From the NCBI GenBank assembly GCA_026418475.1, contig JAOABG010000003.1:1-50621 (forward strand): a DNA stretch of 50,621 bases. The letters are read 5' to 3'. This document shows, piece after piece, positions 551-22,231 of the stretch (its first letter is position 1; every line of letters starts with the position of its first letter). Position numbers and translations under genes: made by a program. The notes under the pieces are model-generated. The model searched no databases. It was not told the DNA's origin and saw only the letters and a program-made list of their open reading frames with translations. Source of the DNA: a bacterium (lineage in GTDB: Bacteria; DRYD01).

Positions 551-589
551 TATTTAAAAAATTACTTTAAATTACTACCTTAAAGTAAT
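551..589 (-). terminator. Possible weak intrinsic terminator of alaS
   Basis: Perfect 10-bp inverted repeat ATTACTTTAA (561-570) / TTAAAGTAAT (580-589) with a 9-nt loop, followed on the minus strand by TTTTT. The stem is almost all A/T, so it is weak. It overlaps the alaS stop codon. Confidence 0.3.
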
Positions 590-3107
590 CTCCCAAAGGG
601 ATAAACCTAATTTTGTCTATTTTTACTAAATTCTTAAAATAATCGACAAAATCTTTGTGAAATACGGCTATCTTCTTATCTTTTAACCTGTAAAAAGCGA
701 AATACTTCTGCTTCAATTTTATAATGTCGTGAATAATAAAAATATCCTCTTCTTCTTCAACTTCAAATTCCAAAGGTTTGTTTTCAAAATTAAGTCCATC
801 AACATATTTCCTGTAAAATTTGATTTTCAAATCCCTGTTTTTCTTAGCCAATTCTTTGTTTTCATTCATTAACTTACCAACATAATTTATCAGATTATTT
901 TCCTCTTGTTTAGTAATAGTTTTCAATTGTGAATTCCTTTGTTCCAAAATTCTGGAAAATTCCAAGACTTTTAATGAGGTTATTGCTTCCAACCTCTTAA
1001 CTCCCATCTGTACAGAACCAGAACTAACTATTTTAAATATTCCAATAACAGAGGTATTTTTAACATGAGTTCCACCACAAAGCTCATAAGAAAATCCTCC
1101 AATCCTAACAGTCCTTACCAAATCAGGATATTTTTCTGCAAAAAGAGCAACAGCACCCTCATCCAAAGCAACTCTTAGAGGTTTGTAAGAAACCTCAACA
1201 TCAAATCCCTCCAATATTTTCTCATTTACCAAATCCTCTATATTCTTAACATCTAAATCCGAAAGATTATCAAAATGAGTAAAGTCAAACCTCAATTTAT
1301 CGTGATCAACTAAAGATCCAGCCTGGTAAACATGATGTCCCAAAATTTTTCTCAATGCGGAATGCAAAAGATGCGTAGCCGTATGATTTATAGCAGTCAA
1401 TTTTCTCCTATTTTTATCCACTGATAAATAAACATCATTTCCCAATCTGATAAAACCATTAACAATTCTACCTATGTGAAAAACAAAACCCTCTACATGT
1501 TTTTGGGTATCATCAACAATAAAAGTAAAATTTTCATTGAATATTTTCCCTTTATCACCAACTTGCCCTCCCGATTCAGGATAGAATGGAGTCTCCTGAA
1601 CTATAAGTATAACCTCATCATTACCTTCATAATAATCCAAAGAATTAAGCTTCCCATCTTCTCTTTTCAATATACCAATTACTTTGGATTGGTAATCCAG
1701 ATAATCATAACCCACAAAAGAAGTTGAGTACTTTTCCTTTATTGAAAATATTTTTATATCGACAGTTTTCTGACGTGACCTTTGCTTCTGAACCTCGAGT
1801 TCCTCATAAAACTCATTCAAATCAATAATAAAGTTCTGACTTTTAGATATTTCCAAAGTCAGTTCTATTGGAAACCCCAAAGTATCATATAAAAAGAAAG
1901 CATCTTTACCTGTAAGTTTTTTGAGATCAACTTTTGATAAATAATCCATACCTTTGGACAAATTCTTGGAAAATCCATTTTCCTCACTTTCTAACATCCG
2001 TTTTATATACTCTTTTCTGGAAGATATTTCAGGATAAACATCCCGATATATATACTCGACAATATTAGGTACTGTATTTAGATATGACACTTTTATTCCC
2101 AAAAGTCTGGAATAAAGCAGCGCTCTCCTGACAATTTTCCTGAGAACATACCCTCTCCCCTCATTAGAAGGAACAACACCATCTGCAAGTAAAAAAACCG
2201 AACCCCTTACATGATCAGCCACTATTCTTTTATAAATTTCTCTATTTTCCAGATATTTCTCATGATTGTATTTCATCTTTAACTCTTTATAAACTTCATC
2301 TACATCTTTATAGACCAATTCTTCCAATCTTGATATAATTGGTAAAAACAAATCTGTTTGATATTGATTTGGTTTTTCTTGGAGAATTTTGGTAAGTCTT
2401 TCTAATCCCATTCCCGTGTCTATGCTTTTTTGTGGAAGAGGAGAAAAACTTCCATCAGCTTCCTTGAAATACTGAGTAAAAACTATATTCCATATTTCTA
2501 TGAATCTTTCATTTTTTTCACATTCCTTACATTCATAACCAGGTTTACATGAAGGATTTGGACAGTTAAAATTTTCATAGAATATTTCACTTGATGGTCC
2601 ACAGGGGCCAGTTGGTCCCGCAGGCCCCCAAAAATTGTCTTCCAACCTAACTATTTTCTCTCTTTTTACTCCTAGACTCAGCCAAACTTCTTCCGCTTCA
2701 TCATCATTGGGATGACAACTGAAGTATAACTTTGAATGATCTATTTTGTAGACTTCTGTAAGAAGTTCATAGGCCCACTCAATAGATTCCCTTTTAAAAT
2801 AGTCTCCAAAAGAGAAATTTCCAAGCATCTCAAAAAAAGTATGATGTCTCAAAGTCAAACCAACATTATCTATATCATCCATTCTGAAACATTTTTGGCA
2901 AGTACTAACTCTTTTGTACTTTGGTTCAATTTTACCGGCAAATTCTGCTTTGAATGGAACCATACCAGCAGCGACAAATAAAAGAGAAGGGTCATTTTCT
3001 GGAATCAAACTGAAACTGTTAAGTACAACATGTCCCTTTTTCTCAAAGAAATTTAAGAAAGTGGTTCTTATTTGATTGTGGCTTAAAACTTGCTTCTGGT
3101 TCAACAT
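567..3107 (-). CDS. alaS: Alanine--tRNA ligase
   Basis: 851-aa ORF with AlaRS N-terminal signature (IRTTFLNFFEKKGH, AAGMVPFK), editing-domain motifs HTATHLLH and CGGTHV, and a C-terminal DHHA1-like tail. I moved the start from GTG 3122 to ATG 3107 because GGAGG lies 8 nt upstream of it. Confidence 0.95.
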   Translation of the reverse strand: MLNQKQVLSHNQIRTTFLNFFEKKGHVVLNSFSLIPENDPSLLFVAAGMVPFKAEFAGKIEPKYKRVSTCQKCFRMDDIDNVGLTLRHHTFFEMLGNFSFGDYFKRESIEWAYELLTEVYKIDHSKLYFSCHPNDDEAEEVWLSLGVKREKIVRLEDNFWGPAGPTGPCGPSSEIFYENFNCPNPSCKPGYECKECEKNERFIEIWNIVFTQYFKEADGSFSPLPQKSIDTGMGLERLTKILQEKPNQYQTDLFLPIISRLEELVYKDVDEVYKELKMKYNHEKYLENREIYKRIVADHVRGSVFLLADGVVPSNEGRGYVLRKIVRRALLYSRLLGIKVSYLNTVPNIVEYIYRDVYPEISSRKEYIKRMLESEENGFSKNLSKGMDYLSKVDLKKLTGKDAFFLYDTLGFPIELTLEISKSQNFIIDLNEFYEELEVQKQRSRQKTVDIKIFSIKEKYSTSFVGYDYLDYQSKVIGILKREDGKLNSLDYYEGNDEVILIVQETPFYPESGGQVGDKGKIFNENFTFIVDDTQKHVEGFVFHIGRIVNGFIRLGNDVYLSVDKNRRKLTAINHTATHLLHSALRKILGHHVYQAGSLVDHDKLRFDFTHFDNLSDLDVKNIEDLVNEKILEGFDVEVSYKPLRVALDEGAVALFAEKYPDLVRTVRIGGFSYELCGGTHVKNTSVIGIFKIVSSGSVQMGVKRLEAITSLKVLEFSRILEQRNSQLKTITKQEENNLINYVGKLMNENKELAKKNRDLKIKFYRKYVDGLNFENKPLEFEVEEEEDIFIIHDIIKLKQKYFAFYRLKDKKIAVFHKDFVDYFKNLVKIDKIRFIPLGDYFKVVI

Positions 3108-3280
3108 TTTGAAAACCTCCACTTGTTTTTAGCTTTCCATTTTAAGGAATTCTTGAGTGTAAAGTTTTTTACCTCTATAGAAAATTGATATAGATATTAA
3201 AACATAAATTTAAAAAATCTGTTCGTAGTTGTAATATACTACTATAATATATATTTATATAAAAGATAGTAGTAGTATAA

Positions 3281-3606
3281 TTATCCACATTTGTGGAAAA
3301 CTTTCATAATTTAAGTATTTGCAGGCTTTTACGATTTTGGGGGTATGTGGAAAAAGTGTGGAAAAAATGGGAAATGGGGTGGAAAAAAAAAGTTCTTTAA
3401 AAAAGTTTTCCACATGTTTTCCACATATTTGGGATATTTTTCCACATTTTAGGAAAAGTTTTCCACAAAAATACGATATTTTTTCCACATGTGGAAAAAA
3501 ATGTTAAAAATGTGGAAAAATGGGGGAAACGATGTGGAAAAATTTTTGGGGTATGTGGAAAACTATGTGGAAAAAATGTGGAAAAAGTCGAAAAAACGGT
3601 GGAAAA
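3281..3606. promoter_or_regulatory. Cluster of DnaA-box-type 9-mers: candidate oriC DnaA-assembly region or DnaA-titration locus
   Basis: TGTGGAAAA starts at 3292, 3346, 3357, 3490, 3511, 3533, 3554, 3566 and 3577. Its reverse complement TTTTCCACA starts at 3406, 3417, 3438, 3459 and 3481. A canonical TTATCCACA starts at 3281, and GGTGGAAAA variants start at 3378 and 3598. Spacings are about 11 or 21-22 bp. Confidence 0.7.
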
Positions 3607-4302
3607 ATGCCGATTTTAAATTATTACAAAAATGTAAATTAAATTAAAAATTTTTTAACAATTATTACAGAGTTATTACAAATATTACAGAAAAGTAAAA
3701 AATATTAAAAAATTTTTTGAATCCAAAAAACTAGTATTACCAACATAAAAAACATACAAATTTTGTAAAATATTTGTTAACTAAATGAAATTTTTGTTAA
3801 AAATAAAAAATTTAACAATTTTTGTTAAAAAAATATTATAAAATTATTAAAATTATTACAAAATTATTACAAATATTACAAAAAAATGAACATATAAAAT
3901 TTTTTACAAATTTAACATATTTTTTACAAATTTTACTTTGTTTTTACAAATTTAACATGAAAATTTTGTTAAAAATATGTTAAGTTATTGTTAAAAATGT
4001 TAAAAAAAATGATACAATTGTTACAAAATTATGTTGAATGTTAAAATTTTAGTGTAGCTTTTATTCTTACTCTACCAATAAATAAAAGATACAAAATTGT
4101 TAAATTTTTATGAAAAAAGTGTTACAATTGTTAAAATTTGTGCTACTTTGTTAAAAAATTATGACAAATATTACAAAAATATTGAAAAATTATTACAAAT
4201 CTTACAAAATTATTAACGAAATATTAATAAAATGTTAAAAAATTATTAAAATTTTGTTAAAAGTTGTAAGAAAATTACAATTTAAAAAATGACTAAATTT
4301 TA
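3607..4302. repeat. Extremely AT-rich field of phased short motifs (TTACAA/TTGTAA and TGTTAA/TTAACA families): candidate DNA-unwinding or accessory-protein binding region
   Basis: About 700 bp with no credible ORF. Nearly every C sits in a TTACA context and nearly every G in a TGTTA context. Palindromes ACAATTGT occur at 4014-4021 and 4124-4131, and the inverted repeat TTTAACAA-TTT-TTGTTAAA lies at 3811-3829. ATTATTACAAA-type units repeat about every 11 bp at 3852-3885. Confidence 0.55.
3901..3960 (+). repeat. Three tandem 20-bp repeats (TTTTTACAAATTTAACATAT / TTTTTACAAATTTTACTTTG / TTTTTACAAATTTAACATGA)
   Basis: Direct reading of 3901-3920, 3921-3940 and 3941-3960. Units 1 and 3 are identical over 18 nt. 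Confidence 0.8.
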
Positions 4303-5124
4303 CTAAATTTTTATATTTTCTATTTGCCTCTTGAATATGAAAAGGCTTAAAAATATCGCAATAAACGAAAGTATAAATGAAGCAGCTATAGCCGTGGGAA
4401 GATCAAAACTATGAAAAGCACGAGAATAAATATACATCATCAGGGTATACGTTGAAGTTCCTGGCCCCCCTTCAGTAACAATAAAAATCTCAGCAAAAAC
4501 TTTTAATGCCGCTAACATGGATAAAAAAGAAGCAAAATAGAAAGTACCTTTCAATAATGGTAAATAAATATACCACATTCTCTGAAAAAAACTCATCCCA
4601 TCCATAACAGAATTCTCTATTATCTCCTTTGATATTGAATACAAAGAAGATAAATAAATAACCACATAGTATCCTAAACCTTTCCAAAAAGTCAACATAA
4701 ACGCCACTAACATTGAATAATAGTAATTCGATAAAAATGGAATTTTCAATCCAAATATTTTTAATAAAAAGTCATTTACTGTTCCTTCATCATTGAACAT
4801 TATTTTGAATACAAAGCCAATACTTGCTATAGGAACAACTACAGGTAAATACAAGATAATCCTAAAGAATGATGCCCACCTATTTGATAAACTGTAAATA
4901 GTAAATGCTAAAAAAAAAGAGAACAATTGAAGTGGTATGACTATTAAACAGTATACAAATGAATTTTTCAATGAAATCCAAAATAATGGATCATTGAATA
5001 CAAATGAAAAACTTTCAGCTATCCCCACATTTTTGTAAACATATACAATACCCGAAATTATAGATAATACATTAAATACCAACCAAAAAATAATGAATGG
5101 AAAAATTAGATAAAAAAATCTCAT
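4303..5124 (-). CDS. Carbohydrate ABC transporter permease, MalF/UgpA type
   Basis: 273 aa and multi-TM, with an EAA-loop region followed by the TEGGPGTSTYTLMMYIY motif typical of the first permease of CUT1 sugar systems. Confidence 0.85.
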   Translation of the reverse strand: MRFFYLIFPFIIFWLVFNVLSIISGIVYVYKNVGIAESFSFVFNDPLFWISLKNSFVYCLIVIPLQLFSFFLAFTIYSLSNRWASFFRIILYLPVVVPIASIGFVFKIMFNDEGTVNDFLLKIFGLKIPFLSNYYYSMLVAFMLTFWKGLGYYVVIYLSSLYSISKEIIENSVMDGMSFFQRMWYIYLPLLKGTFYFASFLSMLAALKVFAEIFIVTEGGPGTSTYTLMMYIYSRAFHSFDLPTAIAASFILSFIAIFLSLFIFKRQIENIKI

Positions 5125-20047: not shown

Positions 20048-22149
20048 CTAATATTGTGGTATAAACTTTTTTGATTGATCTATACCAATATTTATTCCTA
20101 ATATTGGTAGTGCTTTTAGGTATGCATAAAAATAGAGCTGTTTTAATGAACTTCTATAAACTATATAATTTACCCAACAGTGGTTATCTTTTATAAGCAC
20201 TAAATCCACATAATCTATTTTTTTAGTAAAAGAATTATAGTTGAACCATGTTGTTAGACGTAGACTTTGGGATATATGCCAATCTATATTGGTATTTATG
20301 TTTGTGAATGAGTTTCTTTTTGTATCAAATGTTGTGAAAATACTTGCAGTAAATTTGTTATTAGGAAAATATTTAAAATTGACGCTTATTGGACTTATTG
20401 AACCAGTATTGAGATTATAGTTTGTTGATAAGTTTAGATCAAAAGTTCTGTTATTAAAAATGGAAAGGTTGGCTGAGAGGTTTTGATACTTTCCTGTAAA
20501 ATCAGCAAATATCGGAGCAAATCCTTTCCCAAAATTATAAGTGTAATTTATATTTAATTTGTAATTTTTTTTAATTAAACTGAAGTTTGAAGTGAATGAA
20601 TGAACATAAGAAGCATGAAAGTTCCTATCGGAATAGTATTTACCAGTATCAAAGAAATTCTGTTTAAAAATACCATTTGTTGTCCAATTTAAATCCTTAT
20701 CTTTTATGTGTTGAATATGGTAATTCAGAAATAGCTGATATTTAGTTGTGTTTCTGTTGAACCTTGGTTCTTTGTATTTACCCAGAAATATTGAAGGTGA
20801 TATTGTTATTCTATCTCTGAATTTTATGGGTTTGTTCAATTTTAATGTCAATTCAGGAAGTTTATTCACTCCAAAGAAACCATAGTTATTCGTTGTGTTA
20901 TCCAATAATAAAGATAATGTATATAAATCTTTTGAAAATGTATAATTTAAGTCCAATTTTACATTTTGACTTGTCTGAAAGTTATTGGTTATAAAGTAAT
21001 TGTTTTGTAGATCATTTAGATTAAAGTTAAAGTTGAAGTTCTTAAAATTACCTGATAACCTCAGGAATTGGTTAAGTGAAGAAAACTGTTTTTCTGTTGA
21101 TGTTTTACTGGAAGTATAACTTATATTTATTCCTTTTATATTTGTTGTGAATCCATAGGATATACTTTCTGTAAGTGGAGCCTTGAAATTTCTATATATT
21201 GATCTGTTACTTGAGTATCTGACAAAGATATTTAACTGATTTCCTGTTAAATTAAGGTTGGTGTTGATATTTCTGAAACTGTTACCAAACTTTTTATTGT
21301 TGTTAATGAATAAGTAGTTATCAAATTTAACATTTATTTTTCCTATTTGTTTGGTGTAGTAACTATTTACTCCATAGTATATTCCAGTGTATTGTCCATA
21401 TTTTGTTAATATCTTTCCATAGTTTGAATTGTTAAAAAAATAATCAAAGTTTTTAGTAATAAAGAAGCCATCTGTGTTGTTATATCCTATTTTTGGGAAT
21501 GCCGATGTATCTTCTTGTGGAAGTTGTGGGATTTTTTTCCGCTTTAAAGGTATTATTAATTTTTTGTATCCAAATATTTGATTTTTGTACAGAAACATTT
21601 TGGAATTGGAAAGTATCATTTTATCTTCGGGTATGACATCAACTTTTTGTGAATTGAGAATGTAATGCTTATCATCAAAATGATCATATTCGCATAAATT
21701 ACAGGTTGAAAATTTAACATCTTCAAAGGTGTATTTATTTGAAAAGAGATATATTTGTGAATACTCAAAGAATAGTTTATCTTTGAGTTTCAAAGGTTCT
21801 TCACCGAAGTTAGTGATGTAACCTGCTCCTCTTGCTCCATATATCTTTTCTATTTTACCTTCAGTGTTGTATTCAACTTCTAACTTTTCAGTTACAAATT
21901 CATCTTGAGTTTCTAAATTTTTGATGAATGTTTTTCCTGGTATCGTAATTTTTCTTTTTTCTTTGTCTATATTGGCGTTGGATGATTTCAACCAGTATTG
22001 ATTGGTATATATTTCTATAGTTTGGTTAATTTCTATTTTTTGGGGGTCTGATACTATTTGTGGGGTATAGAGAATTATATCTGTTTCTCTAGGATATGAT
22101 GGAAAGAACGTAATGAGTAGTAATGTTATTATGAAAAAAAAAACTTCAT
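20048..22149 (-). CDS. LptD/OstA-like outer-membrane beta-barrel protein; ATG is out of frame across a T10 tract
   Basis: About 700 aa, rich in N/Y/F beta-strand patterns, ending in an aromatic residue (..IPQY). It has an LptD-like central motif (VKFSTCNLC...HYILNSQKVDVIPEDKMILSNSKMFLYKNQIF). The tracked ORF start at 22204 reads through a tRNA. The only ATG downstream of the tRNA (22149) is 1 nt out of frame, separated from the long frame by a T10 run (22134-22143). Confidence 0.6.
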
Positions 22150-22157
22150 TTTTATTG

Positions 22158-22231
22158 CAGGGCGGAGAGGATTCGAACCCCCGACCAATGGATTTGGAGT
22201 CCACCGCTCTACCAAACTGAGCTACCGCCCT
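22158..22231 (-). tRNA. trnW: tRNA-Trp (anticodon CCA)
   Basis: Minus-strand sequence AGGGCGGTAGCTCAGTTTGGTAGAGCGGTGGACTCCAAATCCATTGGTCGGGGGTTCGAATCCTCTCCGCCCTG. It has a 7-bp acceptor stem (AGGGCGG/CCGCCCT), a D-arm GCTC/GAGC, an anticodon loop CTCCAAA and a TTCGAAT T-loop. Confidence 0.9.

Follow-up and report, generated by a model that had tools for sequence, protein, structure and literature searches.

A bacterial origin of replication is usually taken to consist of DnaA boxes and an unwinding element; further regulators that bind the origin are, to our knowledge, known from a few model species only. Regulators of this kind with direct-repeat or short sites include CtrA, MtrA, ArcA and HP1021 (PMC4285127), and the sites of ArcA consist of 2-5 direct repeats, 11 bp apart (PMC3798270). 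Here we analyse a stretch of 50,621 nucleotides (positions 1 to 50,621 of contig JAOABG010000003.1, assembly GCA_026418475.1; hereafter the window) from a Candidatus Calescibacterium-like genome of a hot-spring lineage, the AlaS of which is 94% identical to that of the metagenome-assembled genome (MAG) SKYB25 (L001). The element in question is an A+T-rich repeat array at 3607-4302, which comprises about 26 copies of the 9-mer TTGTAACAA (position weight matrix (PWM) score of at least 9 bits). The - strand carries 22 of these copies; they follow a lattice of 9- and 11-bp steps, and the array lies beside a cluster of DnaA boxes.

Like the sites of CtrA (Caulobacter Cori, TTAA-N7-TTAA), MtrA (M. 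tuberculosis oriC) and ArcA-P (E. coli oriC), the array is made of asymmetric sites that follow each other head-to-tail about one helical turn apart. The sites are likewise degenerate, vary in repeat number and lie in or beside the DnaA-box region (PMC4285127, PMC3798270). Unlike the known cases, which have 2-5 repeats per site or 4-5 per origin, the array has 16-26 sites over 360-700 bp, depending on the species. It is located outside the box cluster, whereas CtrA, MtrA and ArcA sites overlap DnaA boxes or sit between them. Furthermore, its consensus is TTGTAACAA, and the Calescibacterota-like lineage, from which the array is known by sequence alone, is unrelated to the model species. The explanation that we favour, with a probability of roughly 0.45, is that the array would be an accessory origin module, a docking array to which a sequence-specific protein of double-stranded DNA would bind cooperatively. 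This protein is probably not DnaA. The locus itself is likely the chromosomal origin, an assignment that rests on its boxes and DnaA trios.

A strand-biased 9-mer on a 9/11-bp lattice

The G+C content of 3607-4302 is 13.6% (A337 T264 G48 C47) versus 29.6% for the window, and the region includes the lowest-G+C 700-bp segments of the entire stretch. This agrees with the original prediction for this DNA, which had described about 10-15% G+C and two reciprocal hexamer families. The enrichment of the two words is real. TTACAA is found 14 times (1.8 ± 1.3 expected under a dinucleotide Markov model) and TGTTAA 13 times (2.2 ± 1.5 expected), which corresponds to 6-8 times the expectation and to densities 44 and 18 times those of the other 49.9 kb. 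Yet the words are better understood as a single 9-mer, TT[G/A]TTA[C/A]AA, with both families as its one-mismatch variants; ATTATTACAAA and TTGTTAAAA each differ from TTGTAACAA at one position. The view that C occurs nearly only in TTACA[AG] and G nearly only in TGTTAA did not hold, as just 16 of the 47 C and 13 of the 48 G are located in these words. The positions given for TGTTAA were exact or off by 1, but those for TTACA were shifted by 1-3. Reverse-complement forms do exist but are rare (TTGTAA 2, TTAACA 4), and the motifs are therefore strongly strand-biased rather than reciprocal.

Strand-specific k-mer enrichment in four distinct species yielded two words of the same orientation, TTTGTAA(T/C)A and TTTAACAA. 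Their overlap gives the consensus 9-mer, TTGTAACAA (- strand) or TTGTTACAA (+ strand). With up to one mismatch, the array contains 17 forward and 3 reverse copies compared with 1.2 ± 1.0 in shuffled sequences, and 31 matches are found on both strands together in the other 49.4 kb. Most copies carry G alone or C alone. A 17-column PWM refined on the four species identifies 26 sites of at least 9 bits in the array, 22 of these 26 on the - strand, and 7 in the remaining window; the density is about 37 sites per kb in the array versus about 0.6 per kb in the window's other intergenic DNA. Similar frequencies in both would mean plain compositional bias. As the other intergenic DNA is far below the array, we regard the copies as specific sites.

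The spacings between consecutive sites are quantised (9, 11, 20, 22 and 31 bp, then 40/42, 51 and 62 bp), and spacings of 10 or 12 bp are almost never seen, even when sites are defined by their core only. Steps of exactly 9 or 11 bp put the sites on the same side of the helix, with units about 20-22 bp long. Judged from the spacing pattern, the basic unit looks like a two-site block of 20-22 bp, as in the 3 x 20-bp repeat that had been noticed at the outset. Tandem Repeats Finder places this repeat at 3899-3958 (period 20, 3.0 copies, 85% matches) and reports several period-11 arrays besides. Three 20-bp units (T/A)GT(T/A)AAATTTGTAAAAA at 3897-3962 (- strand) represent the best-conserved core of the array and are near-invariant in a four-genome alignment. 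Each unit has two sub-sites 9 bp apart, and the first sub-site of the next unit follows 11 bp on. The anticipated periodicity of about 10-11 bp was recovered as well: the strongest Fourier period falls at 10.25-10.75 bp in each of the five genomes compared, and in four of them, L016 being the exception, at least one track has a peak that equals or exceeds the most extreme value of 200 shuffles. Intrinsic A-tract curvature was considered as a function but not relied on; A-tract bending fades well below 80 °C.

Arrays of the OmpR/PhoB/CtrA type are recognised by asymmetric half-sites that are placed head-to-tail about 10-11 bp apart, and this is the arrangement found here. TTAA-N7-TTAA occurs 7 times in the array (about 1 expected), and pairs of TT[ATC]ACA are also strongly over-represented; it is because of the lattice that such CtrA-/PhoP-type direct-repeat patterns are enriched. 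A likeness to the boxes of HP1021 (5'-TGTT[TA]C[TA]-3', Helicobacter pylori oriC) is apparent from the consensus, as TTGTTACAA contains TGTTACA. HP1021 binds oriC and blocks its unwinding (PMC4285127). In contrast to true HP1021 boxes, the pattern has only 2 matches in the array (1.2 ± 1.1 expected), since most copies lack either G or C, and HP1021 is specific to Campylobacterota. IHF, Spo0A and HP1021 patterns in the array are absent or at chance level, and the E. coli-type 13-mer GATCTnTTnTTTT and GATC have zero matches there.

Several groups of sites, all on the - strand, can be distinguished. The site nearest to the boxes, TTGTAATAA (3621-3629), keeps a fixed register to the outermost DnaA-type box. 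At 3853-3881 three sites abut one another (TTGTAATAA, TTGTAATAA and TTGTAATAT), with spacings of 11 and 9 bp. A sub-array of the PWM sites TTTTAACAA, TTTTAACAA, TTTTAACAT and TTGTAACAA extends over 3966-4026, and its last member (4018-4026) is the sole perfect copy of the consensus. The distal sub-array at 4119-4251 has nine sites with spacings of 9, 20, 11, 9, 22, 9, 33 and 11 bp. A less A+T-rich island at 4045-4085, which interrupts the array, is kept only in the closest relative, L001.

The original prediction had already considered sites for a second DNA-binding protein, in the form of a dimer on inverted half sites. While the specific sites are borne out, the dimer is not, as the sites are direct repeats in one orientation. 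The dyads on which it was based are present at the expected positions (ACAATTGT at 4014-4021 and 4124-4131, TTTAACAA-TTT-TTGTTAAA at 3811-3829); they are few and not kept in more distant relatives. As ACAATTGT is not conserved, the reading as a dimer on a palindrome was rejected.

The array could also be viewed in terms of transcription. It would then be a promoter cluster or a transcribed non-coding region, in which TTGTAA, TTAACA and TTGTCA serve as -35-like hexamers directed toward the origin and alaS. There are indeed 28 promoter-like matches, mainly on the - strand, versus 11.2 ± 4.4 in shuffles; the cross-species variants TTGTCA, TTGGCA, TTAACA and TTTACA are 1-2 mismatches from TTGACA; and no terminator is predicted after the permease gene that borders the array. 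Against this, strict -10 hexamers follow at a 16-18-bp spacer after 0-6% of the sites, which is not above the value for irrelevant spacers, and every match is weak (9-10 of 12 positions). Conservation also covers all 9 bp and the exact spacing, which goes beyond the demands of a -35 element. Rfam covariance models have no match to the array at gathering scores, and at E <= 1 the sole matches are hairpin artefacts over the DnaA-box palindromes, so that neither threshold supports a known transcript family. We consider a transcriptional role highly improbable.

Conservation and selection

The array is part of the sole long non-coding gap of the 50-kb window (3123-4302, 1180 bp), which lies directly upstream of alaS (567-3122, - strand) and directly downstream of an ABC-transporter permease gene (4303-5124, - strand) and holds 15 perfect DnaA boxes in its left third. 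A coding role of 3607-4302 was rejected, as the open reading frames (ORFs) in this region are only of low complexity and about 50 aa long. We compared the window with L001 (94% AlaS identity), L003 = L015 = L131 (69%), L011 (66%) and L016 (66%). The order permease, array, DnaA boxes, trio element, alaS is common to the five species, down to 66% AlaS identity, with arrays of 360-700 bp that contain 16-26 sites. Single sites turn over between species; the strand bias stays in every species, and the T-rich/A-rich strand asymmetry of the array is conserved. The 3 x 20 core keeps its exact 20/20 spacing in four of the five species compared (window, L001, L003 and L011), 306-331 bp from the first DnaA box, and is absent from L016. 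In the same four species the last site and the outermost box start 23 bp apart; in L016 the distance is 33 bp. Despite this fixed register, the stretch in between is not conserved in sequence.

The box cluster contains a palindrome, TTTTCCACATGTGGAAAA, which allowed the array to be sought beyond the synteny group. Among 120 metagenome loci with this palindrome, L131 alone has the array (23 matches per 700 bp); the other 119, unrelated loci that served as negative controls, have 0-1 PWM matches per 700 bp. A relative of 24-25% G+C from the clade with 57% AlaS identity has just 2-4 scattered PWM matches in 11-13 kb. Relatives with 56-57% AlaS identity (L013/L014) have no boxes upstream of alaS, so that in the course of the phylum's history either alaS or the origin has changed its place.

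Selection was measured between the window and L001. Four-fold degenerate sites differ by 22-24% (A/T-state 15.4%, G/C-state 49.5%), whereas the array differs by 7.0% (A/T-state 4.3%, G/C-state 23.3%). Within the array, the motif cores are 1.4% divergent versus 9.3% outside the cores (Fisher p = 5e-5). With 11.1% divergence of the DnaA-box cluster as a whole, the array is the more conserved of the two. By this comparison, the array is under purifying selection. The same data bear on the idea that it is a functionless A+T-rich satellite, brought about by tandem duplication and mutation bias. Such an origin would suit the A+T-rich genome and the many overlapping short-period arrays reported by Tandem Repeats Finder. 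However, divergence is 2-3.6-fold below that of state-matched four-fold sites and about 7-fold lower in the cores than outside, architecture and strand bias are kept down to 66% AlaS identity, and the motif is rare both in other intergenic DNA and in the 24% G+C relative. We therefore hold a satellite to be extremely improbable.

Some further observations concern the assemblies. Between the permease stop and the array, L003 has an extra segment of about 270 bp (4437-4700; 2513-2780 in L015 and about 3300-3570 in L131), which is not A+T-rich and is missing from the other species compared. Contigs of four relatives (L002 1-60, L012 1-70, L017 1-158, L018 1-161) end 160-205 bp upstream of alaS, and the ends of the L002 and L012 contigs fall at the trio/DnaA-box element. 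Apparently, assemblies of this lineage repeatedly break at the locus, and origin arrays will therefore be under-represented in MAGs. The 18-mer TTTTCCACATGTGGAAAA is also present in more than 120 unrelated metagenome contigs. In the window, positions 1-19 (AGATGTGTATAAGAGACAG) represent the Nextera/Tn5 mosaic-end adapter, i.e. untrimmed library sequence at the contig end. Elsewhere, about 48 bp are shared between tRNA-Trp (22157-22231, - strand) and a 718-aa ORF (20048-22204, - strand). This ORF has no Pfam match, and its start is probably over-extended.

The DnaA boxes, the trio module and the unwinding question

Perfect boxes (TTWTNCACA) occur 21 times in the 50 kb (8.7 ± 2.9 expected), and 15 of these 21 are located between 3281 and 3585. 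Together with degenerate boxes they form a cluster (3281-3606) that is organised in orientation blocks; in the four-genome alignment the boxes are invariant and the spacers variable. At 3481-3498 two perfect boxes abut head-to-head (TTTTCCACATGTGGAAAA), which marks the switch between orientation blocks and is invariant in all relatives. The boxes of 3490-3606 read TGTGGAAAA on the + strand and have the array on their 3' side, i.e. they point away from it. The outermost DnaA-type box, GGTGGAAAA, occupies 3598-3606 and is followed by GCCG at 3609-3612.

On the alaS flank of the cluster lies a basal-unwinding-type module (3236-3300, + strand) with trios, boxes, an A+T spacer and an inverted trio copy. 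Here, the trios TAGTAGTAG at 3267-3275 are followed by TAT AAT and by the boxes TTATCCACA (3281-3289) and TGTGGAAAA (3292-3300), so that the + strand of 3267-3300 reads TAG TAG TAG TAT AA-TTATCCACA-TT-TGTGGAAAA. Upstream of the trios are 24 bp of 100% A+T and the inverted copy TACTACTAT at about 3239-3247. The inverted copies place trios on both strands and can form an 11-bp stem (DNA fold z = -3.15). The 23-mer ATGTGGATAATTATACTACTACT of this trio/box element is found unaltered in L001, L002, L003 and L011 and with hardly any change in L012 and L016; a metagenome scan for it found nothing.

Basal unwinding requires a DnaA box 0-16 bp from at least three trios (consensus 3'-GAT-5') on a 5' tail (PMC8287927). 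A DnaA box (up to two mismatches) with trios 3' of the TTATCCACA-reading strand within 0-16 bp is present at 3267-3300 but not at the array, where the nearest boxes (3490-3606) have the opposite orientation. Neither TAGTAG nor CTACTA nor any perfect DnaA box occurs inside 3607-4302. We checked the orientation rule on an E. coli oriC sequence that matches 5,425 genomes. In E. coli the 13-mers lie 5' of TGTGGATAA on one strand, and the trio side of the present locus shares that orientation. The basal unwinding system (BUS) of B. subtilis is oriented likewise, with the unwinding element 5' of the box. As in B. subtilis, the module at 3236-3300 has TAGTAGTAG at most 16 nt from a correctly oriented box, with pure A+T beyond. 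It differs from the B. subtilis arrangement in that the trio-nearest box is inverted (TTATCCACA-TT-TGTGGAAAA) and that the trios are duplicated as an inverted repeat. Going by its sequence, 3236-3300 is a canonical-looking box-plus-trio unwinding module. The original prediction had instead taken the order box, GC cluster and A+T-rich DNA at the array as a basal unwinding layout, an interpretation that is not supported, as the adjoining boxes 3490-3606 are oriented away from the array.

It is important to consider whether the array could nevertheless be the zone of DNA unwinding and helicase loading, in which its words would provide strand-specific single-strand contacts for DnaA or the loader. 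The region has the lowest G+C content of the window, its T-rich/A-rich strand asymmetry is conserved, and the 3 x 20-bp repeat recalls the 13-mer repeats of other origins. In a crude single-bubble stress-melting model (one bubble, copolymer energetics, the supercoiling state of the thermophile not being known), several settings place the opening at about 3770-3940, and none places it on the trio side. The energetics of this model make A-T pairs slightly unstable at 80 °C and 0.2 M salt, and as modelled the array would be near its melting point at 80 °C if stabilising factors were absent.

Nevertheless, the adjoining boxes face away from the array, which is opposite to R1 and the unwinding element in E. 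coli and to the B. subtilis BUS. The array lacks DnaA trios, whereas a perfect, invariant trio module is located on the other flank. With 360-700 bp it has several times the length of known unwinding elements, and the selection on specific 9-mers with exact 9/11-bp spacing goes beyond what helical instability needs. The melting model is crude, too. Of the earlier claim that the array is the unwinding element of the origin, the origin-type locus and the easiest melting can be retained, but not the DnaA-guided architecture: the array is thermodynamically the weakest DNA and architecturally not a site of DnaA-guided opening. An unwinding zone is thus unlikely in our view. Given the trio module on the opposite flank and the boxes pointing away, the array is probably an accessory protein-binding module.

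Another explanation assigns the array to DnaA itself: a field of low-affinity boxes would extend the cluster of strong ones, and DnaA-ATP would spread outward along it by polymerisation, with the array acting as a titration reservoir or DnaA forming a cooperative oligomer. In E. coli oriC the weak DnaA sites are spaced by 2 bp, i.e. they follow in 11-bp (9 + 2) steps, and the 11-bp steps of the array equal 9 + 2 bp as well. TTTTTAACA and TTTTTTACA differ from TTWTNCACA at position 6 only and are co-oriented with the neighbouring boxes, and the register to the outermost box is fixed. In addition, one array-type site, TTTTAACAT (3501-3509, - strand), is wedged in phase between two perfect DnaA boxes with spacings of 12 and 9 bp; it is kept in L001 and L003 and not in L011 and L016. 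On the other hand, the position-6 C that the consensus requires is missing in 22 of the 27 one-mismatch near-boxes, and the commonest variant, TTGTAATAA, has 3 mismatches to the box consensus when aligned in register by eye. Near-boxes with up to one mismatch number 9 versus 4.5 ± 2.3 expected, with up to two mismatches there is no enrichment, and the TTGTAACAA family reaches 17 versus 1.2. Together with zero perfect boxes in the array, this means that, unlike the low-affinity DnaA sites of E. coli, its sites are not DnaA-box-like beyond chance. A weak-box field therefore appears quite unlikely.

A candidate docking module at the putative origin

Accordingly, the case for an accessory docking array is carried by the motif, its grammar, conservation and selection, the 23-bp register, and the site embedded among the boxes, and by the fact that the role of unwinding is already filled by the box-plus-trio module at 3236-3300. 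By analogy with winged-helix response regulators on direct repeats, protomers would bind as tandem head-to-tail pairs and then polymerise along the array. Thereby they may coat DNA that is otherwise the most meltable of the region. Such a coat could modulate initiation by keeping the weak duplex closed or wrapped, with DnaA-driven opening occurring at the trio module on the opposite flank. Alternatively, it may gate the oligomerisation of DnaA on the adjoining boxes.

Phased direct repeats are also known from plasmids. In theta-replicating plasmids, iteron origins have tandem direct repeats of 17-22 bp beside DnaA boxes and A+T-rich DNA, with a rep gene next to them. The 3 x 20 unit of the array and its lattice, with units of 20-22 bp (two helical turns), fit such repeats. 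In contrast to iterons, it is chromosomal and syntenic in five species, and Pfam detects no rep-like gene in the window. A related possibility is a centromere-like site for partition or origin positioning, where a small adaptor protein would bind phased direct repeats as at type Ib/II plasmid centromeres. It would account for the same site grammar as the docking array, and direct repeats of 11 bp also make up parC of plasmid R1. No second array occurs in the DNA that was sampled, and no canonical parS is found in the 50 kb adjoining the origin, where the palindrome TGTTNCACGTGAAACA has only 3-mismatch chance matches outside the array. Conversely, the window contains no partition genes, and both the register with the DnaA boxes and the site inside the box cluster point to initiation, not segregation. 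We judge a centromere-like function very unlikely.

Several points weigh against the docking array. By the crude stress-melting model, the array is the easiest-opened DNA in the first 8 kb, which fits an unwinding role as well, and sequence alone cannot separate double-strand from single-strand recognition. Roughly one site in two (TTTTTAACA) departs from the DnaA-box consensus by a single mismatch and shares the orientation of the adjoining boxes, so that DnaA itself may be the binder. The motif was scanned over about 50 kb of the host genome only. A candidate binding protein was not found by Pfam among the 46 large ORFs of the window, with no response regulator, ParB or DnaA; more generally, these ORFs encode no dnaA, dnaN, parAB or response-regulator gene. 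Finally, the GC skew across the locus has inconsistent signs between relatives.

If the docking array is taken one step further, it might represent an undescribed type of origin module of a deep-branching thermophile lineage, in which a protein polymerises on a lattice of about 25 sites with strict 9/11-bp steps and thereby clamps 0.7 kb of DNA that at growth temperature would melt without it. The loading or release of this filament, and not the availability of DnaA alone, would then set when and where the origin opens. We regard this extended version as doubtful but conceivable.

What sequence comparison alone brings out here is a large, ordered and selectively maintained second site array at the putative origin of an uncultivated hot-spring lineage, for which consensus, orientation, lattice and register are defined. 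As a caution for the reading of other origins, the unwinding element is not necessarily the stretch with the highest A+T content next to a box cluster. The array represents a concrete bait for a new origin-binding protein, and it provides a test case for how 14% G+C DNA beside the origin is handled in a bacterium that lives near 80 °C.

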